Source: Escherichia phage JEP6
Sequence record: MT764206.1
Direction: 5' to 3' (one strand)
DNA: 64,000 nucleotides
Of this stretch, positions 2,575-41,823 are shown piece after piece; positions within the stretch are counted from its first letter, which is position 1, and the number at the start of each line of letters is the position of its first letter. Below the pieces are notes generated by a model. The model searched no databases and was not told the origin of the DNA. It saw only the letters and a program-made list of their open reading frames with translations. Made by a program: the position numbers and the translations under genes.

Positions 2575-3775
2575 ATTTTGTAATAATGTCAAACTGTTCT
2601 TTAAAGCAGAAGCTTGAATCTTGGTGCTGATACAAAAATTCATATGCTTTTTCTCGCTCACGGTCATAAAGAGCTCGGTCAGATGACAGTTCTTTAATAC
2701 GCTCGAATGTTGATTCCATGTCATTTTCATCAAACCAAATGATACCACTATCATGCGAGGTCAAAGGAGTATTATCAACACGGAATTTTAAATTATCACC
2801 CGTTGATTTCCAAAATACCGGAATTGTACCGCAAGCACCTAATTCAAGATGAGTATATTCGAGTGAGCGTTGTAAGTATTTCTGGTTAAGTTTACTCAAC
2901 TGATATCCAAAGCCAGATTTACTCATTCGTTCAAGCATTTCACTATTAATATAACAATCTAGGATTTGTGCCGGTTGATTCGGCGTGAGATTCATTTTAT
3001 CAATCTCACGATTACCATAATATTCATACGGAATACCTTTTTCCTTAATTGCAATAAAAGCAGGGGAACGTTCAAGACCTTCCATTACAGTGGATTTACC
3101 AGCAGGTTTTAAGAATTTTTCGTGAAAATCAAACATCTGATAAAAACCTTTCCATGTAGTCGTACGACCAATCCAACGGTTGATGTTCATGTTAATTTCA
3201 GAAACATCTTTCCAATAAGTTGACCGAACCTTCACAATATCCATAGGAGGCTGAAAATTATATACTGTTGGTGCTTCTTCAATATCATCAAACAGAGAAA
3301 CAGTTTCTGGATACCATTCTTTCATCAGAACTTTATTAAAATCGCCATTATCAGAATGACTAAAAATAACATCAGCTCGACGAACAGTTTCTTCTAATCC
3401 CAAATTTCGACGCAAAGAAAGCACAGAATGATCATGCTGATAAACTACAACACGAATAGAAGGTTTAATATTATCTAAAAGTTTTTTATAGTTATTAATC
3501 GTAGCTTCTTGAACGGAAGTAGCAGGAACAGAATTAATAATTAGAATATCACAATCATTTACCAGCTTAAGTGCTTTATCGTATTCTTTAGCTAAAATAA
3601 CTGGAATTGAAAATGATTTGTGGTCATGAGAACTTGTACGAGTAAATGATTTATCTTTAGCATAAACCAAAGTTACTTCATGACCATTTTTAATAAACCA
3701 ATCACGCTGCTCAAGAGAAAATTTAGTTACACCGCAACCTTCAAGACCCCGAGCCAGAAAAATGCATACTTTCAT
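2573..3775 (-). CDS. a-gt: DNA alpha-glucosyltransferase
   Basis: 400 aa; N-terminus MKVCIFLARGLEGCGVTKFS and overall sequence match recalled T4 AGT; position between 47 and 55. Confidence 0.85.
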   Translation of the reverse strand: MKVCIFLARGLEGCGVTKFSLEQRDWFIKNGHEVTLVYAKDKSFTRTSSHDHKSFSIPVILAKEYDKALKLVNDCDILIINSVPATSVQEATINNYKKLLDNIKPSIRVVVYQHDHSVLSLRRNLGLEETVRRADVIFSHSDNGDFNKVLMKEWYPETVSLFDDIEEAPTVYNFQPPMDIVKVRSTYWKDVSEINMNINRWIGRTTTWKGFYQMFDFHEKFLKPAGKSTVMEGLERSPAFIAIKEKGIPYEYYGNREIDKMNLTPNQPAQILDCYINSEMLERMSKSGFGYQLSKLNQKYLQRSLEYTHLELGACGTIPVFWKSTGDNLKFRVDNTPLTSHDSGIIWFDENDMESTFERIKELSSDRALYDREREKAYEFLYQHQDSSFCFKEQFDIITK

Positions 3776-4729: not shown

Positions 4730-5270
4730 ATAAAAAATCCAAACTAGGAGAATCGTCTACAACACTTTTCTTTTCAGCCCCTGGTGTTCTATAGGTTGAT
4801 TCTTCGTAATGCGTCATTTTATCGTAGATGTCTTGAATAAAAGTTTCATCTACTAACGCAACCATATCGTCGTCACGACTGTCATAGACATTGTGAACGA
4901 AGTAACTATATTTCTTTGCAACTTCCTTACGTTCTTTTTTAATACGTTGGACGAATGCATTAAAACAAGCTTGAGTTATATACGCATGTGGGTTTTTATA
5001 TTTCGTTTCATCAAAATTATGAAGCCCCTTAATAGAAGCTTCTATACCATCTGCAATCATTTCTTGTTTCCAAGACTGGGTGTATCCTGAAAAGTTGAAA
5101 CGTTTAGATAAGCCTTCTGCAATAAGCATAATGGCTAATCCGATAGTATCATTCTGACGAACTACTTTATTTGGGTCTTTATTATTTGCTAATTCTGTTT
5201 TCCAATCAATAATAGCTTGTAAAAGCTCTTTATTGTTTACGTAATTATATTTAGGCTTAGTTTCTGACAT
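4713..5270 (-). CDS. 55: late-transcription sigma factor gp55
   Basis: 185 aa from ATG at 5270 ([23 protein letters not shown]...) matches recalled T4 gp55; GAGGTG RBS; track ORF starts 2 codons upstream at GTG. Confidence 0.9.
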
Positions 5271-5307
5271 TTTCACCTCTTAGCTCAATTCATAGATCTA
5301 TTATATC

Positions 5308-5337
5308 ATAATATTTGAAGATCTATCTTAAAGCATA
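5308..5337 (-). promoter_or_regulatory. possible MotA-box-type middle promoter upstream of gene 55
   Basis: minus-strand TATGCTTTAA followed 14 nt later by TATTAT; spacing is marginal. Confidence 0.2.
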
Positions 5338-5348
5338 GAGGATATCAG

Positions 5349-5618
5349 TTATCTAAGTAAACAGTATGCTTGGAATACTTTCTCCATCATCTTTTTAAAT
5401 TCATGAATATCTATATAATGACTAGTTAAATCAGCATGATATAAAAAGTCTAAAAACTTTTCATGTGTGCTAACATATTCGCTTTCATTTAATTCAGAAA
5501 CATGGCTTTCCCAATATCCAACACCAGTCTTATTTGGGAAAAATGAAATTTTCATGTATTGGTCAACATAGAAAATGCCATAATTTTCAATAGTAATAGA
5601 AATATTAATAAATTTCAT
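5349..5618 (-). CDS. hypothetical protein
   Basis: ORF track 89 aa. Confidence 0.5.
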   Translation of the reverse strand: MKFINISITIENYGIFYVDQYMKISFFPNKTGVGYWESHVSELNESEYVSTHEKFLDFLYHADLTSHYIDIHEFKKMMEKVFQAYCLLR

Positions 5619-5830
5619 ACATTCATCAACTTAGCCGCTTCAAGAGCTGCATCTAGTGAATCAAATTGGTCAACGTATTCAATCAATTCGCCGTAATTAG
5701 CGTATAACCACCATTGGCTAAATTCATACTCAAGGATGAATCCGTTTCCTTCAATTTGAGTTAAACCAATGCCATTTGTATTTACTTCATACCCAGCAAG
5801 ACGTAAATCGTTAATAAGAGCTTCGTTCAT
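5615..5830 (-). CDS. hypothetical protein
   Basis: ORF track 71 aa; overlaps neighbour by 4 nt. Confidence 0.5.
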   Translation of the reverse strand: MNEALINDLRLAGYEVNTNGIGLTQIEGNGFILEYEFSQWWLYANYGELIEYVDQFDSLDAALEAAKLMNV

Positions 5831-30680: not shown

Positions 30681-31010
30681 TCAATTAGAAAATAAATTTA
30701 TCCAAGATTGTTCTTTAATTAAAAATGGCTCAGAATCATATGCCATTAAACTCTGTGTGATTAGTCCTTTAAAAGGCCCATCAATAAATTCCATGGTAAA
30801 ATATGGAATTTTATTCATTAGCCGTGCATTAGGAGCAGTACACAAAACTCTGCATCCTTTGAATACACCTTTTTGTAATTTGTATTGCTTAGGATAAAAT
30901 TCACTTAAAATGTTATTTTTTGCCAAAATTTCAAAATGATTCACCAATTTATTTTTAATAGTTTTTGGCGAAAAATAAAGATATTCGAAAAGCTGAGTGT
31001 CTGTCATCAT
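30681..31010 (-). CDS. hypothetical protein
   Basis: 109 aa from ATG 31010 (ATGA overlap with upstream stop); track start 31061 is an extension. Confidence 0.45.
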
Positions 31011-31546
31011 TGCATTCCGATTACGAAAAACTGCGGACGAGTAATACCACCAATACAACATTTAATATTACAGCAGCAGTGTACAGTGTCAATGTGGACA
31101 CTATAAATCTTATCCATATCAGGAGATTTGACAGGCTCATCAATTATATATAAAATTCGCGAAAGCGATAAACCTCTGAACTTGCTTCCTTTATTACCAA
31201 TAAAACTGCGCACAGAATCAGTAAATAAACGAAAACGTATATCATCATTAGAATAACGCGAAAATTCCTTTTTAATGTTATTTGCAGAAATTTTAGCGTA
31301 AGCTGAAGTATTAGAAAGAACAATAACCGTTCCGCCATCATATAACCAATTAGCAGCAAAGTTAGTCACAGCAATTGATTTACCTGATTGACGTCCACCA
31401 TCTAGTCGAAGTGTGCAATACTGTTTAAGTAAGTCTTCAAATGGTGGGACATAACCGTTCTTACAAATTTCTTCTACTCTAGCATCAGAATGGTGTGTAA
31501 AAGCATTCATCAGGGATAGATAAGGTCCAGTTAAAAATGTTCTCAT
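31007..31546 (-). CDS. small P-loop NTPase with Cys-rich C-terminus
   Basis: 179 aa; Walker A GGRQSGKS, Walker B LYIIDEP; occupies the position where T4 has denV. Confidence 0.5.
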   Translation of the reverse strand: MRTFLTGPYLSLMNAFTHHSDARVEEICKNGYVPPFEDLLKQYCTLRLDGGRQSGKSIAVTNFAANWLYDGGTVIVLSNTSAYAKISANNIKKEFSRYSNDDIRFRLFTDSVRSFIGNKGSKFRGLSLSRILYIIDEPVKSPDMDKIYSVHIDTVHCCCNIKCCIGGITRPQFFVIGMQ

Positions 31547-31659: not shown

Positions 31660-31962
31660 TTATTTACCTTTAATTACTTTAGCTGCTTCGATAGCCGCTT
31701 GCTGAAGGTCATCCATAGACATACCGAATTTAGAAGCAAAGTTATCAATTTTCTTTTCGACAGCATTCAAAGGCTTGGCCTGTTTACCTTCATTAGCGCC
31801 AGGAAGAGCGAGAATACGCTCTTTGTCAATATAAAGGCTTACAAGTTTCTTACGGTCTTTATCGGACAAATCATGAAATGAATGGGCCTTTTTATTTATA
31901 GCGGCTTCTAATTTACCTGCACTCACTCGCGCTTCAGTAATAAATTCTTGATATGTTTTCAT
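31660..31962 (-). CDS. ipII: internal protein II
   Basis: 100 aa; N-terminal capsid-targeting sequence MKTYQEFITEA; matches recalled T4 IPII. Confidence 0.85.
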   Translation of the reverse strand: MKTYQEFITEARVSAGKLEAAINKKAHSFHDLSDKDRKKLVSLYIDKERILALPGANEGKQAKPLNAVEKKIDNFASKFGMSMDDLQQAAIEAAKVIKGK

Positions 31963-32021
31963 ATGTTTCCTTTAAATGTAAATATTTTAATTGGTAATTG
32001 ACTGTTTAAGTAACTGTGAAT

Positions 32022-32051
32022 ATATTATCACAATTCTAAGAGAAAGTAAAC
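32022..32051 (-). promoter_or_regulatory. T4-type early promoter (GTTTAC-N18-TAATAT)
   Basis: conserved element between e stop and ipII start. Confidence 0.55.
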
Positions 32052-32056
32052 TGCTT

Positions 32057-32581
<525 letters not shown>

Positions 32582-35470: not shown

Positions 35471-35511
35471 AGTATTTCCTTAGGTTGATTAAAAATAAAA
35501 TCTGTGGAAGA

Positions 35512-35541
35512 ATTATATCATGCTACTTAAGAGATGTAAAC
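35512..35541 (-). promoter_or_regulatory. T4-type early promoter (GTTTACA-N17-TATAAT)
   Basis: conserved element about 40 nt upstream of ORF start 35470. Confidence 0.6.
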
Positions 35542-36046
35542 TATTTTTAATTTTACAAATTCGTTCAGCTTCTTCAACAGCGGCAGTGATAATGCTTTTA
35601 GCTATAGGAGTACTAATACTAGTAGCTTTTACACTTAACACGATTTCTTTATCTTCACCAGGCCAACCCCACGATTTTTCACCATGAGTGCCTTTAATTA
35701 CAGCAGACACCTCAAGTGAGCATCCATTATCGCATGTTTTTACATTAACAACCCAAGTGTCACTTTTCTCAACCGGTTTATCCCAGTAAATATTAAGAAT
35801 ACGTGGGACATCAAATTTAGCAGGGCAAATCTTAACCGTAAGACCTTCGCTTTCTAGCCAATTAATAAGAGGGCGTTCATACATGCGGCGATGTGGGCTT
35901 TGAACTCGACAAGCTTTGTACCCATTGCTCGCGGCTTCACTAAGCTCTTCTAATACCTGCTTTTGCATTATTGATAAGATACCATCAAAAGATTTTTCGG
36001 AAGTTTCATTCAGTTCGGTATAAAGAGACATAACAGTTTTCCTCAA
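35513..36046 (-). CDS. hypothetical protein
   Basis: ORF track 177 aa. Confidence 0.5.
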   Translation of the reverse strand: MRKTVMSLYTELNETSEKSFDGILSIMQKQVLEELSEAASNGYKACRVQSPHRRMYERPLINWLESEGLTVKICPAKFDVPRILNIYWDKPVEKSDTWVVNVKTCDNGCSLEVSAVIKGTHGEKSWGWPGEDKEIVLSVKATSISTPIAKSIITAAVEEAERICKIKNSLHLLSSMI

Positions 36047-36087
36047 ATTATAGGCTCATAATATCTCAATCATGAGCCTATGTAAAC

Positions 36088-36351
36088 TTATTTCATATTA
36101 TTGAAATATTCTTCTGCGATTTCGTCGTTATCATGGTAAACTTTAGAAGACAGTTTAACATAACTTTCAGCAGTGAACATGTTAATCACAACCTTTACAG
36201 TATACCACTGACCATCTTCATTACCCATTACTGCGTAAGTTTCAAACATCGGATGGTCAGGACCGATAACTTTAATATCATTCACTGTACGACCAAAATC
36301 TTCTGAAACACATTTCATAAAGAAGTTGAACAGTTCGCCGTAATTATCCAT
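36088..36351 (-). CDS. hypothetical protein
   Basis: 87 aa from ATG 36351 with GGAGA RBS; track start 36405 would overlap the promoter. Confidence 0.5.
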   Translation of the reverse strand: MDNYGELFNFFMKCVSEDFGRTVNDIKVIGPDHPMFETYAVMGNEDGQWYTVKVVINMFTAESYVKLSSKVYHDNDEIAEEYFNNMK

Positions 36352-36395
36352 TTCATTCTCCAAGTTGTTTTTCTGTATCAGTAGTTGATAGTTGT

Positions 36396-36425
36396 ATAGT
36401 ACCATGGAAGGACAAGGATGTAAAC
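36396..36425 (-). promoter_or_regulatory. T4-type early promoter (GTTTACA-N17-TACTAT)
   Basis: conserved element upstream of ATG 36351. Confidence 0.6.
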
Positions 36426-36558
36426 CGTTTTGTGAAAAATTTTTTAAAAAGTTTTAGGGAATTCTAGGGCAGGGAGGGGCAATTAAAAGATAGGATAATA
36501 TATTATAAAGGGTAGAAACTAAATGATGTCTAGAGAGGCCTGGAAAGGCCTAGATACC

Positions 36559-36586
36559 AAAAAGCCCCAACCTTTTGGCTAGGGCT
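36559..36586 (-). terminator. intrinsic terminator (10-bp stem, AAAA loop, T5)
   Basis: minus-strand AGCCCTAGCC-AAAA-GGTTGGGGCT followed by TTTTT, just downstream of CTS-protein gene. Confidence 0.65.
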
Positions 36587-36593
36587 AAGAATG

Positions 36594-37067
36594 TTATTTG
36601 ATTTGTTTAGCAGACCAAATGCGGTCTTTAATAATTTTTTGGATGTCTTCAACATACTCAAGAGAGTGAGCATGTGGGTTATCTTTGAAACTATAAGCAC
36701 GAGCTAGCTTTTGGCCTTCAGTTTTGATTACTAAAAGCTCTTTAAGGATAGCTTCATATTTAGCGATAATTCCTTTAACAATATTTTTTTCTTGTGCAGC
36801 TTTAGGATCTGCTTTAGGCGCAGGTTTACCCGAAGCCTTTGCAAAAGCAGCGCCAGTAGCAACTAGACTTTTCCAGGCCATACTAACTGCATTTCCCGTA
36901 AATCCTTCTGCTTTCATGTCGCGAGCAAATTGGAATCGTGATTCGTCAGAAGCATCTTTATAGGAATATTTACCCGCTGCAATGGCTGCTTTTGCGACAG
37001 CTTGAATTTCGGTGCTAGATGCTTCATTTAACACCGCTTCATTTAAAAATTGAGCATATGATTTCAT
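36594..37067 (-). CDS. internal-protein-like gene with capsid-targeting sequence (IPIII/IPI-type)
   Basis: 157 aa; N-terminal MKSYAQFLNEA resembles the CTS of ipII (MKTYQEFITEA); late promoter upstream. Confidence 0.6.
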   Translation of the reverse strand: MKSYAQFLNEAVLNEASSTEIQAVAKAAIAAGKYSYKDASDESRFQFARDMKAEGFTGNAVSMAWKSLVATGAAFAKASGKPAPKADPKAAQEKNIVKGIIAKYEAILKELLVIKTEGQKLARAYSFKDNPHAHSLEYVEDIQKIIKDRIWSAKQIK

Positions 37068-37107
37068 CTTATTTCCTGTTTTAATTCGTGGATTTAATAT
37101 ACTACTA

Positions 37108-37115
37108 TATTTATA
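37108..37115 (-). promoter_or_regulatory. late promoter (TATAAATA on minus strand)
   Basis: exact TATAAATA about 40 nt upstream of CTS-protein gene start, between tRNA-operon terminator and the gene. Confidence 0.5.
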
Positions 37116-37117
37116 CT

Positions 37118-37145
37118 AAAAAGCCCCAACCTTTCGGTCGGGGCT
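37118..37145 (-). terminator. intrinsic terminator of the tRNA/stable-RNA operon
   Basis: minus-strand AGCCCCGACC-GAAA-GGTTGGGGCT (10-bp stem, GAAA loop) followed by TTTTT. Confidence 0.7.
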
Positions 37146-37454
37146 AAGCCTTGCGGCAACCTTGTCGGGGTTCCACCTGCTAAGGCAAGTGTTTGTACGA
37201 AACGCCGGGATTCGAACCCGGTTATTAAGTAGTTGACGCTACTCAATATTTTTAAAAGGCCATATCTCGACCATATCCGAACGTTCCGTCAAAAACGCTA
37301 CTCGGCTTATGGCAAAGATATTTCCTCGAATCGATAATTCGGTGCGCCGTTTCTGCTGTGATGTAAGAGGGCATCAATAAACGTAAAGATTATTAACGCA
37401 ATTCCTTACTCAGGGAACATCAGTCCGACGACTTACCGGTAGCGACCCGGTTTC
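37146..37454 (-). ncRNA. putative stable RNA region (like T4 species 1/2, RNA C/D)
   Basis: about 300 nt without ORF between ORF 37455-37805 and the terminator, on the tRNA strand; contains tRNA T-arm-like hairpin CCGGGTTCGAATCCCGG; exact ends undetermined. Confidence 0.4.
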
Positions 37455-37805
37455 TTAATATTCTTTTAAAGAATCAATATATTCACGGCGTTTACGCCAC
37501 AAATCAATTGCTTCATACGCGGATTCAGCATTTCGAATTAGCCGGCATTTATGTAAAGACTTATGATTTTGATATTGTGTAGATAACGGAATTGTATCTA
37601 AAAGGTCTTTACGATCAAAATATTCGTAACCATCTAAACCAAATGAACGATTTTTGAGAAATTGCCAATGACCATATTCGTTTTCGACATAAACATAATC
37701 TGCATGCTGATAAAGCAAATTAATTACACGTTCAGAAATAACAGTATCATTATGATTAAAATAGAATGTTAAATCATGAACTACTAAATAAACATTACCT
37801 TTCAT
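37455..37805 (-). CDS. hypothetical protein inside the tRNA operon
   Basis: 116 aa from ATG 37805 with GAGGA RBS; track start 37853 would overlap tRNA-Arg. Confidence 0.45.
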   Translation of the reverse strand: MKGNVYLVVHDLTFYFNHNDTVISERVINLLYQHADYVYVENEYGHWQFLKNRSFGLDGYEYFDRKDLLDTIPLSTQYQNHKSLHKCRLIRNAESAYEAIDLWRKRREYIDSLKEY

Positions 37806-37823
37806 ATTTTCCTCACTTATAAT

Positions 37824-37900
<77 letters not shown>

Positions 37901-37903
37901 TAA

Positions 37904-38569
37904 TTAAAATTTCATTTTTCGACCTTTAAACCATCCTTCTGGAATTGGGTCAGTTTTCTTAATACGTTTAGAAACTTTTTCATCTAATGAATGAATCCAC
38001 ATCATACCAAATTGGGAATTCTTTTCGCCCTGTTGGTGTTTATTTCTGGCGTGAGATTCTTTCATTTTATTAATAGTTTCAGGAGTATGATGCTTATTTA
38101 AAAATCTGCTATTATTTAAAAATTTTTCCCTGTATTCAGGAGTTGACCACAAGCGTTTAAATACATTTGAACCATGTTTACGATATTTTTCTTGAAGTAA
38201 AATATCATTTTTAAAACGTGACTTAAACGATTTAGCTCCTTTTAAACTAGCGTCTTTCTTCTGGTTTAGCATCCCAGGAATATTTATATGATCCCATCCA
38301 CCTTCACCACCTAATTTCAAATTATAAACATCAGGGCGCTTTAAAAACTCTTCAGTCACAATATTCTTTTCTGACTCAAACATAGAGGTTTTATCGTCAA
38401 AGAACTCTAATATTTCTTTAGAAAAATTTTCTATACCATACTTATCTTGGGCTCTTTTTAATAATTTACCAGAACCCATATATCCATCATCTAAATTTTC
38501 GGTAGAATGCACACCAATATAAATTTTATTATTAATTTTATTTGTTATTTTATAAGTGTAATGGAACAT
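37904..38569 (-). CDS. segB: GIY-YIG homing endonuclease (SegB-like) within the tRNA cluster
   Basis: 221 aa; N-terminal YTYKITNKINNKIYIGV...GYMGSG GIY-YIG motif; located between tRNA-Ile and tRNA-Arg. Confidence 0.7.
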   Translation of the reverse strand: MFHYTYKITNKINNKIYIGVHSTENLDDGYMGSGKLLKRAQDKYGIENFSKEILEFFDDKTSMFESEKNIVTEEFLKRPDVYNLKLGGEGGWDHINIPGMLNQKKDASLKGAKSFKSRFKNDILLQEKYRKHGSNVFKRLWSTPEYREKFLNNSRFLNKHHTPETINKMKESHARNKHQQGEKNSQFGMMWIHSLDEKVSKRIKKTDPIPEGWFKGRKMKF

Positions 38570-38610
38570 AAATATCTCCTATTTCTAAGAGTATTTATGT
38601 TCCCAAAATA

Positions 38611-38682
38611 TGGCCCTGGGTGGAATTGAACCACCATCTGGCGATTATGAGTCGCTTGCTTGAACCTTCCAGCTACAGGGCC
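38611..38682 (-). tRNA. tRNA-Ile (anticodon CAU; lysidine-type AUA reader, Met not excluded)
   Basis: manual fold: acceptor GGCCCTG/CAGGGCC, anticodon loop CTCATAA, T-loop TTCAATT; no encoded CCA. Confidence 0.7.
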
Positions 38683-38688
38683 TTGATA

Positions 38689-38761
38689 TGCTGATTGACG
38701 GAATCGAACCGCCGACGTCCTCATTACAAGTGAGGTGCTCTACCTACTGAGCTAAATCAGC
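38689..38761 (-). tRNA. tRNA-Thr (anticodon UGU)
   Basis: acceptor GCTGATT/AATCAGC, D-arm GCTC-AGTAGGTA-GAGC, anticodon loop CTTGTAA, T-loop TTCGATT. Confidence 0.85.
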
Positions 38762-38768
38762 GAAATTA

Positions 38769-38855
38769 CGGAGGCGATAGGATTTGAACCTATGAGTCGC
38801 CGGAGCGACTGCCGGTTTTCAAGACCGGTGCATTAAACCACTCTGCCACGCCTCC
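38769..38855 (-). tRNA. tRNA-Ser (anticodon UGA), type II with long variable arm
   Basis: acceptor GGAGGCG/CGCCTCC, anticodon stem CCGGT/ACCGG with loop CTTGAAA, long variable arm, T-loop TTCAAAT. Confidence 0.8.
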
Positions 38856-38857
38856 AG

Positions 38858-38931
38858 TCTCCGTGGCAGGATTTGAACCTACGACATTCTGCTCCCAAAG
38901 CAGACGCTCTACCAAACTGAGCTACACGGAG
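38858..38931 (-). tRNA. tRNA-Pro (anticodon UGG)
   Basis: acceptor CTCCGTG/CACGGAG, D-arm GCTC-AGTTTGGTA-GAGC, anticodon loop TTTGGGA, T-loop TTCAAAT. Confidence 0.85.
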
Positions 38932-38941
38932 TAAATTAAAT

Positions 38942-39015
<74 letters not shown>

Positions 39016-39020
39016 AAATT

Positions 39021-39107
39021 TGGTGCGAGAAGTGGGACTCGAACCCACAAGGAAATCATTCCGCAGCATTTTAAGTGCTGTGCCTTTACCAATTTGACCA
39101 TTCTCGC
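39021..39107 (-). tRNA. tRNA-Leu (anticodon UAA), type II
   Basis: acceptor GCGAGAA/TTCTCGC, anticodon stem CAGCA/TGCTG loop CTTAAAA, long variable arm, T-loop TTCGAGT, CCA encoded. Confidence 0.8.
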
Positions 39108-39113
39108 GTTATA

Positions 39114-39746
39114 TTATTTATTACGTGAAAAAGACTGTTCTATCAATTCTGGACACTTTCGTTCTATCCATTTTCTAGCTTTTTGTGGGCTTATACCTAT
39201 TATTTTAGCAGCTTTACTAACCCATCCAAATTTAGAATAATCGATTTTAACTAATTCTTCGTAAATTTCATCAGTTAAAATCTTTTCATTAATATTTACC
39301 AGTAAATGATATAATTTGTTATCATTAGCAATTTTAATGAATCTTTTATAGTTTCCGCCTTTACTTAAACCTAATGAAGTAATTGCAGATGATATAGTAG
39401 CCGAATTTAATAATGCGTTTAAAATTTCTTCATCACTAACATTATAACGCTTTTTATTATTTTTAATATTTTTACCAGCAAAAGTATCAGTTTGCGAGTG
39501 ACAGTTTGGACATAATAATCTTAAATTTGATTTAAGATGATTTTTGTTATTTCCATCAATATGGTCTAATTGCAGAACAATATGCTTATTTTGCCATTTT
39601 GAAATTTTACAAATTGCACACTCATATGGAAAAATATTTTCTTTTATTATTTTGTCTTTCAGCTTTCCTGTGCTAAAATTTGGGTGTTTTCCTTCAAAAA
39701 TTTCAGCTAATTTAGTATCCATAATATGATTCCCAATTATTAACAA
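39114..39746 (-). CDS. HNH homing endonuclease (Mob-like) immediately upstream of the tRNA cluster
   Basis: 210 aa; HNH motif LQLDHIDGNNKNHLKSNLRLLCPNCH. Confidence 0.7.
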   Translation of the reverse strand: MLIIGNHIMDTKLAEIFEGKHPNFSTGKLKDKIIKENIFPYECAICKISKWQNKHIVLQLDHIDGNNKNHLKSNLRLLCPNCHSQTDTFAGKNIKNNKKRYNVSDEEILNALLNSATISSAITSLGLSKGGNYKRFIKIANDNKLYHLLVNINEKILTDEIYEELVKIDYSKFGWVSKAAKIIGISPQKARKWIERKCPELIEQSFSRNK

Positions 39747-39832
39747 AGGCTCTCAAACAAGAACCCTTGATGATAGAGGGTATTAATCAGTGCGGTACGA
39801 GTTAATAATAACAAATAATTCTTAAAGCATAT

Positions 39833-40766: not shown

Positions 40767-41054
40767 TTACAAAAGATTTTTAGCAATAATTTTGAGCTGA
40801 GCTACTGAAATATGCTTGGCTTTAAACAACGCAGTTTCTTCAGCAGGAGAGATAACGATTGTAGCACCATCCTTTTTAGCAGACCACCCATCGCCTAGGT
40901 AAACAGTACCTTTGATTTCTTCGCCATCAACCAGACTAATCATTGGTTTACCTTCTCGTCCTTTATTTGCTTTAATAACTTCAGAAGTAAGAGTAGCTTC
41001 GGTAATGGTAGAAACCGGGGTAGTTGTAGAAGTAAACTCTTTGAAAGTTTTCAT
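40767..41054 (-). CDS. internal-protein-I-like small protein (ipI locus)
   Basis: 95 aa; N-terminal MKTFKEFTS CTS-like leader; position between 57B and the tRNA region. Confidence 0.55.
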   Translation of the reverse strand: MKTFKEFTSTTTPVSTITEATLTSEVIKANKGREGKPMISLVDGEEIKGTVYLGDGWSAKKDGATIVISPAEETALFKAKHISVAQLKIIAKNLL

Positions 41055-41084
41055 TTTATTTTCCTAATTAATTTTGATGAGATA

Positions 41085-41114
41085 ATAGTATCACTACCTC
41101 ATCAGCATGTAAAC
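41085..41114 (-). promoter_or_regulatory. T4-type early promoter (GTTTACA-N17-TACTAT)
   Basis: conserved element about 30 nt upstream of ipI-like ATG. Confidence 0.6.
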
Positions 41115-41126
41115 AACTTTGTGAAA

Positions 41127-41823
<697 letters not shown>

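Follow-up and report, generated by a model that had tools for sequence, protein, structure and literature searches.

The 64,000-nt stretch of Escherichia phage JEP6 analysed here (sequence record MT764206.1; hereafter the window) contains, on its minus strand at positions 36594-37067, an open reading frame (ORF) of 157 codons whose product is probably a previously unnamed internal protein (Ip) of the phage T4 type, encoded by a self-contained late cassette at a third polymorphic locus, between e.8 and rnaC. The kind of protein, an internal protein that bears a capsid-targeting sequence (CTS), is well known; as for the family, a second type of protein that occupies the same slot in other phages, and the locus itself, none of the three has been recognised as Ip-related, as far as the literature searched and the 100 annotations among the matches listed show. 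The window is a Tequatrovirus segment that matches Salmonella phage SG1 most closely (99.8%) and is collinear with T4 at approximately 93-97%. The features of the cassette, in positions of the window, are the following.

36594-37067, minus strand: coding sequence of the candidate internal protein, 157 aa, an ORF read from the sequence
37038-37067, minus strand: CTS MKSYAQFLNE, codons 1-10, with Y4 and F7 for targeting and L8-N9-E10/A11 as the predicted L/I-X-E site of gp21 (the slash marks the cut)
37023-37037, minus strand: second LNE/A site, codons 11-15 (AVLNE), which arises from a 15-nt tandem duplication
37072-37077, minus strand: AGGAAA, which resembles a Shine-Dalgarno sequence and ends 4 nt before the ATG (at 37067), read from the sequence
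37108-37115, minus strand: T4-type late promoter -10 element TATAAATA, exact, 41 nt upstream of the ATG
37117-37145, minus strand: upstream intrinsic terminator (hairpin from 37145 to 37122 plus T-run), which closes the tRNA/rnaD/rnaC unit and abuts the late promoter
36558-36586, minus strand: intrinsic terminator of the candidate gene (hairpin from 36586 to 36563, then T-run), which starts 8 nt past the stop
37113-37148, no strand assigned: 36-nt direct repeat, upstream copy, bounding the cassette
36554-36589, no strand assigned: 36-nt direct repeat, downstream copy, 86% identical to the upstream copy
36784-36790, minus strand: A7 run (codon 93) within the Pro/Ala/Lys linker, the point where frameshifted, truncated homologs diverge

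The product of the frame, MKSYAQFLNEAVLNEA..., begins with MKSYAQFLNEAVLNEASS, and the precursor has a mass of 17.2 kDa and an isoelectric point (pI) of 9.5. The gene was found by tblastn in 511 phage records, and its frame is intact in hundreds of genomes from four genera. It is under strong purifying selection: the ratio of nonsynonymous to synonymous substitution rates (dN/dS) is 0.06-0.07 in comparisons with three Tequatrovirus orthologs and 0.09 in that with a Mosigvirus ortholog, for which the synonymous rate (dS) is approximately 1.5. The substitution pattern fits the minus-strand frame, and for this reason an ORF on the opposite strand (36724-36963) was rejected as the true gene. The protein matches phrog_2280 (“unknown function”) at E = 4e-60, in a full-length match to the hidden Markov model covering residues 1-157, and no family reached significance in searches of Pfam, NCBIfam and PADLOC. 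Among the matches listed, all 60 records of the gene carry generic annotation, mostly “hypothetical protein”, and so do all 100 when the RB14-type slot gene described below is included. An Rfam scan of 36000-39800 returned tRNAs only, and no RNA element in or around the gene.

The evidence for an internal protein lies above all in the N-terminus. For T4, as reviewed from the work of the Black laboratory (PMC9026906), IPIII needs no more than its first 10 residues to be packaged, amber-suppressor experiments on IPIII assign targeting mainly to residues 4 and 7 and processing to residues 8 and 10, and gp21 cuts after L/I-X-E. The candidate retains all four of these experimentally defined positions (Y4, F7, L8 and E10), and they are followed by A11. 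The initial annotation had likened its first 11 residues, MKSYAQFLNEA, to the CTS of ipII, and the resemblance is borne out: ipII of the window starts MKTYQEFITEA, with 6 of 11 residues identical and three conservative changes. Among the 610 ATG-initiated frames of at least 40 aa in the window, the pattern MK.[YF].[EQ]F.{1,3}E is found in ipII and the candidate only; about 0.003 matches are expected per composition-preserving shuffle round, and a match of any kind turned up in 1 of 300 rounds.

Homologs were gathered from searches of 5.8 billion proteins and 1.84 billion representatives. All of those gathered (24-99% identity; 12-14 aligned) start with M-x-x-[YF]-x-x-F-[LV]-x(1-6)-E, a signature that is retained even where identity over the protein is only 24-36%. 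The predicted cleavage site, which the initial annotation had named, together with presence in virions, as what its reading depended on, is present as LNE/A in the candidate and as [LV]-x(1-6)-E in all homologs aligned. Nine alignment columns are invariant in the whole protein, two of which (M1 and F7) belong to the CTS, and L8 is nearly invariant. The codons of the CTS differ synonymously between genera (TAT/TAC, TTT/TTC and TTA/TTG), and the constraint is therefore on the peptide rather than on a DNA recombination motif. Jiaodavirus homologs start MKFKEF, which resembles the MKTFKEF of IPI. In the Tequatrovirus versions, a 15-nt tandem duplication at 37023-37052 (TTAAATGAAGCGGTG / TTAAATGAAGCATCT) doubles the predicted protease site, adding L13-N14-E15/A16; the duplication is not present in the Mosigvirus, Jiaodavirus and Muldoonvirus homologs. 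Indels and length variation among the homologs are concentrated directly after the CTS motif, which is the pattern that would be expected at a propeptide boundary.

The gene sits in an expression unit of its own. Both the exact late promoter and the downstream terminator given in the initial annotation stand: TATAAATA is at 37108-37115 on the minus strand, in a layout that is conserved across genera, and the stop codon is followed by the hairpin from 36586 to 36563 and its T-run. The number of such octamers in the window is at the chance level (15 observed, 12.4 expected), so that significance by count alone was rejected; because the octamer is not enriched in this AT-rich window, we rely on its position and its conservation between genera. 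The succession of terminator, TATAAATA, approximately 35-45 nt and ATG is identical in four Tequatroviruses, and fD1, NBG2 and KRT47 have the element in the corresponding position. The same layout, with different terminator sequences, is found in Jiaodavirus KpV477 and before a tandem pair of CTS genes in Muldoonvirus PS2. In the Mosigvirus homolog, and before the RB14-type gene, the element is only a 7/8 match (AATAAATA or GATAAATA). No sigma-70-like promoter was called upstream of the candidate on the same strand. The two terminators form the cores of the two copies of the 36-nt direct repeat, so that the cassette is bounded by related sequences on both sides.

Canonical ip genes are arranged differently. 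We compared the 5' regions of ipI (window 41055-41160), ipII (window 31963-32070) and the ip genes of T4 and RB14. Upstream of ipI, ipII, ipIII, Ip4 and Ip5 there is a promoter-like motif, GTTTAC...N17...TATACT/TATATT, together with an inverted repeat or stem-loop that resembles a PeSL element (early promoter plus stem-loop), and these genes generally have no TATAAATA within 110 nt. The comparison suggests that the classical Ips and the proteins of the e.8-rnaC slot may be expressed at different times. Synthesis restricted to the late period is compatible with incorporation into the prohead core.

The mature protein is predicted to have 147 or 142 residues, depending on whether the cut falls after E10 or E15, and the corresponding N-terminal peptides are predicted to be AVLNEASSTEIQAVAK or ASSTEIQAVAK. 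The calculated masses of the two forms are 16.0 and 15.4 kDa, with a pI of 9.5-9.6 and 14% Lys. The T4 proteins IPI-III have pI values of 9.0-9.65 and 13-16% Lys, and the candidate (pI 9.5, Lys 14%) is within this range. An AlphaFold2 model built from 12 sequences has an overall predicted local distance difference test score (pLDDT) of 81; in it, residues 18-75 form a three-helix domain and residues 88-154 a long hairpin of helices, and between the two is a Pro/Ala/Lys-rich linker (76-87) of low confidence. Residues 8-15 are of low confidence in this model (pLDDT <50), and in a shallower model from 7 sequences (overall pLDDT 73.5) the same is true of residues 1-15. The segment 8-15, which spans both predicted cut sites, is thus predicted to be disordered. 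Across the homologs, the linker keeps its composition and not its sequence.

Some homologs are cut short in the linker. In P0006 (SfPhi01, 10 members), P0008 and P0009 the frame changes after AQEK, at the A7 run, and in KpV477 there is an in-frame TAA in the same linker; in all of these, only the N-terminal three-helix domain is left. The shortening could reflect homopolymer sequencing error, or it could represent recurrent truncation or slippage.

Beyond the CTS, the candidate resembles no described protein in the searches made. BLASTP against IPI, IPII, IPIII, Ip4 and Ip5 gave similarity confined to the first 11 residues, and a displaced ipIII or Ip4 was rejected on these grounds as the identity of the gene. 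The Pfam match IPI_T4 is absent for the candidate, a sequence-profile search of the PDB gave no match at E <= 1, and Foldseek against BFVD and the PDB returned the protein itself or noise only.

Virion data are available for a close ortholog. The g140 product of Yersinia phage fD1 (67942-68415, 157 aa) shares 98% identity with the window protein, and was classed as particle-associated (“PPAP”) at the strict threshold in liquid chromatography-tandem mass spectrometry (LC-MS/MS) of purified virions (PMC8309999, Table S3); the same table marks it as having no similar protein expressed by T4. The detection is weak proof of packaging, because the dataset labels many non-structural proteins, and we regard it as consistent with packaging without proving it.

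The position of the gene is best understood from a comparison of slots across phages. It is flanked on one side by the e.8 homolog (36088-36405) and on the other by the rnaC and rnaD homologs and then the tRNA genes. In T4, window positions 36036-36588 and 37113-37455 map onto one stretch, in which the two segments overlap by a single terminator copy (T4 70825-70859). T4 therefore has one copy of the repeat and lacks the 524 bp between the copies (559 bp from start to start), in which promoter and gene are carried. The junction in T2 and T6 is equally clean, with a single terminator followed by GGTATCTAGGCC. In Yersinia phage PST, the gap from e.8 to tRNA-Arg is approximately 540 nt, as in T4, and no ORF is annotated there. 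In fD1 and NBG2, the slot holds the same gene as the window. In RB14 it holds a different ORF of 187 aa, RB14ncORF136c (5100-5663 of the RB14 segment compared), which starts with MKTYAEFLTEAAKL (MKTYAEFLTEA); this gene is annotated as hypothetical, “similar to RB69ORF148c/149c”, is present in 165 records, and occurs in split form as RB69ORF148c/149c. In KRT47 and fPS-65 the two genes occur in tandem, with a separate terminator after each (the RB14-type gene is at 606-1169 of the KRT47 segment). If the candidate is called A and the RB14-type gene B, the states observed are thus empty, A, B and A+B.

Synteny from the tRNA cluster to the e.x genes extends to Mosigvirus SHSML-52-1, Jiaodavirus KpV477 and Muldoonvirus PS2. 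In Serratia phage PS2, an extra ORF of 72 aa with the start MKSFNEFINES lies immediately upstream of the homolog (2786-3004 of the PS2 segment). Both this ORF and RB14ncORF136c are annotated as hypothetical, and by their N-termini both are candidate new internal proteins. When the candidate family was compared with RB14ncORF136c by hhalign and BLASTP, only the first 11 residues, i.e., the CTS, could be aligned; RB14ncORF136c nevertheless also gives a full-length match to phrog_2280 (1.4e-53). Either phrog_2280 is a composite, or the candidate and RB14ncORF136c are very remote paralogs derived from a tandem duplication.

The initial annotation had described the position as non-canonical and had placed T4 ipIII between ipII and e. 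The latter is correct, and the former holds relative to T4; it does not hold generally, since the slot is conserved and polymorphic across T4-like genera, and empty in T2, T4, T6 and PST. The candidate lies in neither of the two recognised Ip loci (ipI and ipII/ipIII), which have a shared 5' region. From its empty, single and double occupancy, as in these two known hyperplastic loci, the e.8-rnaC slot can be identified by sequence as a putative third polymorphic Ip locus. A paper of 2025 still speaks of “two Ip loci” (PMC12373910), the named Ips of PST in the annotation of the Krisch laboratory (IpIII-VI) all lie within the two recognised loci, and Nolan 2006 makes no mention of internal proteins. 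The third slot may have escaped notice because T2, T4 and T6 are all empty there.

Several known systems can be set beside the cassette. The closest in character are T4 IPIII and IPII, which share with the candidate a 10-residue CTS with M1, K2, Y4, F7, L or I at position 8 and E10/A11; they are likewise small, basic and Lys-rich (pI 9.5-9.65), non-essential and patchy in distribution, and encoded in an e-proximal accessory region. They differ from it in that there is no similarity past residue 11, in their location (denV-e, as opposed to e.8-rnaC) and in their 5' control, which consists of GTTTAC...TATACT and a stem-loop, whereas the candidate has a bare late promoter abutting a terminator. 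T4 IPI/IPI* (Pfam PF11634), an inhibitor of GmrSD, bears a CTS, is cleaved by gp21 and is injected with the DNA, and so provides a functional precedent for the role proposed below; however, it has a 19-residue propeptide and, according to reviews, a mixed alpha/beta fold, whereas the candidate is predicted to be all-helical and has no sequence match to it. Ip4 (RB14, T2; IpIV of PST) is also 157 aa long and has a CTS, and both genes are present in fD1 and NBG2. It is annotated as an internal virion protein, but its mature sequence is unrelated, it occupies the ipIII slot of a recognised locus and it bears an Ip name in the databases.

The RB14ncORF136c and RB69ORF148c-149c genes are similar to the candidate in other ways: they share its slot, a CTS-like start, flanking terminators, hypothetical status and phrog_2280, and they stand in tandem with it in KRT47 and fPS-65. 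They differ in that nothing aligns past the first 11 residues, in the 7/8 promoter element and in having another terminator. Finally, T4-like phages have PeSL promoter-terminator cassettes, or hyperplastic regions (Arbiol 2010; Comeau 2014, PMC4122927), which are comparable in that conserved compound terminator/promoter elements enclose accessory genes, and in both these and the candidate cassette recombination between the bounding elements would explain the indels. The elements themselves are not the same, since PeSL consists of an early promoter plus a stem-loop, whereas the element described here joins an intrinsic terminator to a late promoter.

The reading of the gene product as a CTS-bearing internal protein, which was that of the initial annotation, is thus supported by the CTS positions, their conservation, the composition of the protein, the low-confidence segment at residues 8-15, the conserved cassette and the LC-MS/MS detection in fD1, from which we infer packaging and cleavage. 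We consider it quite probable that the protein is packaged. A number of observations weigh against this. Positions 3, 5, 6 and 9 of the CTS are unlike those of T4, the 5' region does not have the GTTTAC...TATACT/stem-loop motif of canonical ip genes, gene 21 is outside the window, and the mature part matched no family, anti-defence protein or specific fold in the searches described above. The gene is also strongly conserved rather than fast-evolving, as judged by dN/dS, and the candidate homolog of one Jiaodavirus examined (KpV477) contains an in-frame stop. In the fD1 dataset, 113-137 of the 277 products scored alike (approximately 40-50% of the proteome), including DenV, NudE and lysozyme (PMC8309999). 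For CsCl-purified virions of Jiaodavirus ValerieMcCarty, none of six predicted tryptic peptides of the distant homolog was found in the supplements, and this homolog is not among the virion proteins with more than 15 peptide-spectrum matches.

Among other explanations of the gene, the most serious is that the protein is packaged and processed, but serves the phage's own DNA through its linker and helical domains, by charge neutralisation or organisation, or by helping ejection or protecting ends. The basic Pro/Ala/Lys-rich composition of the linker, which is kept in all homologs, would suit such a role, as would the strong conservation (dN/dS 0.06-0.09) in place of diversification, and solid-state NMR, as reviewed, indicates that lysines of internal proteins contact DNA phosphates (PMC3012670). 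On the other hand, T2, T4, T6 and PST manage without the gene, which is therefore dispensable for packaging and ejection, the slot holds a dissimilar CTS protein in other phages, a pattern suggestive of host-specific accessory functions, and all three of the T4 Ips that have been studied are GmrSD inhibitors. A DNA-associated or structural role is the main competitor, and is disfavoured by the dispensability of the gene and the interchangeable occupants of the slot; we consider it unlikely.

Less probable still, by a clear distance, is that the product is an unpackaged late protein of the cytoplasm, with an Ip-like N-terminus left over from ip recombination and a detection in fD1 due to contamination. 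The conserved 5' ends of ip genes are thought to mediate their shuffling, the upstream region of the candidate is unlike canonical ip cassettes, many non-structural proteins are present in the fD1 dataset, and no processed N-terminal peptide has been reported. But identity to ipIII over the first 33 nt is no more than about 67%, and codons vary synonymously between genera under an unchanged peptide signature. A relic would also have decayed over such divergence, whereas M1, F7 and L8 rank with the best-conserved columns of the whole protein in homologs down to 24-36% identity, and late-only expression matches the timing of prohead assembly. The simplest explanation, a chance ORF between two terminators and no gene at all, would account for the missing Pfam and NCBIfam families and for the generic nature of all 100 annotations among the matches listed. 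It is already refuted, and can be set aside, given dN/dS values of 0.06-0.09 at dS up to 1.5, the intact frame in hundreds of genomes across four genera, the PHROG match at 4e-60, the peptides of the fD1 ortholog and the confident AlphaFold model (pLDDT 81).

With an internal protein as the preferred reading, a course of events can be proposed. Judging from the conserved architecture, RNA polymerase directed by gp55 would start late in infection at TATAAATA, immediately after the tRNA/rnaC terminator, and would stop at the candidate's own terminator, giving a monocistronic mRNA of approximately 0.5 kb. Through Y4 and F7, and in keeping with the virion detection in fD1, the CTS would draw the 157-aa basic precursor into the assembling prohead core. 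There the prohead protease gp21 would cut after E10 and/or E15 to give an all-helical protein of 15.4-16.0 kDa, which would stay with the packaged DNA. By analogy with known Ips, the protein may then enter the next host together with the ejected DNA and act ahead of all phage gene expression. Recombination between the repeated terminators at its two ends may be what inserts and removes the cassette itself, which would give rise to the empty site of T2, T4, T6 and PST and to the alternative occupants elsewhere.

Ip1, Ip2 and Ip3 each specifically inhibit a different type IV restriction enzyme of the GmrSD family (PMC12373910), and IPIII that lacks the CTS still acts in the cytoplasm (bioRxiv 2022.04.14.488369). 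By analogy, the most likely role of the mature protein would be to inhibit, stoichiometrically, a host nuclease directed against modified T-even DNA, possibly a GmrSD-family type IV restriction enzyme outside the coverage of Ip1-3. BLASTP and Pfam gave no sequence homology to Ip1, Ip2 or Ip3 beyond the CTS, and the predicted all-helical fold gave no fold homology to them. Because of the lack of a match for the mature part, the anti-restriction step is drawn purely by analogy; provided that the protein is packaged, an anti-defence role of some kind would be slightly the likelier outcome. A broader proposal, which we put forward tentatively and with somewhat more doubt than belief, is that the slot is a third hyperplastic locus whose protein types, at least two in number (the 157-aa family and the RB14ncORF136c type), are injected inhibitors of defences beyond those covered by Ip1-3. 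Candidate targets, again by analogy, would be further GmrSD clades or other immediate-acting defences of Escherichia, Shigella, Salmonella and Yersinia that target modified DNA.

The Ips act before phage transcription and are in this sense the phage's first responders. With the slot genes, which are carried by hundreds of sequenced therapeutic and environmental genomes of Tequatrovirus, Mosigvirus, Jiaodavirus and Muldoonvirus, this group would gain two uncharacterised types of protein and a third locus. T2, T4 and T6, in which the site is cleanly empty, provide natural null backgrounds, so that the hypothesis is directly testable by gain of function, and the outcome could explain differences in host range among near-identical phages. 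If the CTS works, the short variant MKSYAQFLNE would in addition widen the sequence space available for packaging in T4-based delivery vectors.

The window also contains two canonical Ip genes and several other variable sites, as follows.

31660-31962, minus strand: ipII, canonical Ip gene, 93% identical to T4 IPII
40767-41054, minus strand: ipI, canonical Ip gene, Pfam IPI_T4 at 5e-52, 98% identical to T4 IPI

The ipII gene lies directly between vs.8 (31007-31546) and e (32057-32545), with neither ipIII nor denV present: tblastn queries with T4 DenV, IPIII, Ip4 and Ip5 gave no match anywhere in the 64-kb window. Within the tRNA cluster, an ORF of 210 aa for an HNH endonuclease (39109-39746; phrog_14736 at 6e-124) stands in place of T4 tRNA-Gln, and the alignment with T4 ends at 39108 and picks up again at 39729. 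No tRNA-Gln was found by ARAGORN, and the window has 7 tRNAs, as compared to 8 in T4. Between rnaD and tRNA-Arg there is a further ORF (37455-37853), of 132 aa when started from TTG, whose 116-aa core matches phrog_3355 (unknown function). As called, it overlaps tRNA-Arg by 30 nt, and it is absent from T4; T2 has an ORF at the same position (a match of position only), and in KRT47 a gene is annotated there. The tRNA-Arg of the window is too diverged from that of T4 to be aligned by blastn.

On the other side of the Ip slot, the e.7 position is held by an ORF of 177 aa (35513-36046; phrog_6869), which blastn did not match to T4 e.7. Positions 35487-36036 stay unaligned in the comparison with T4, and other relatives have a 58-aa ORF at this position, so that e.7 looks like another small replacement hotspot adjoining the slot.

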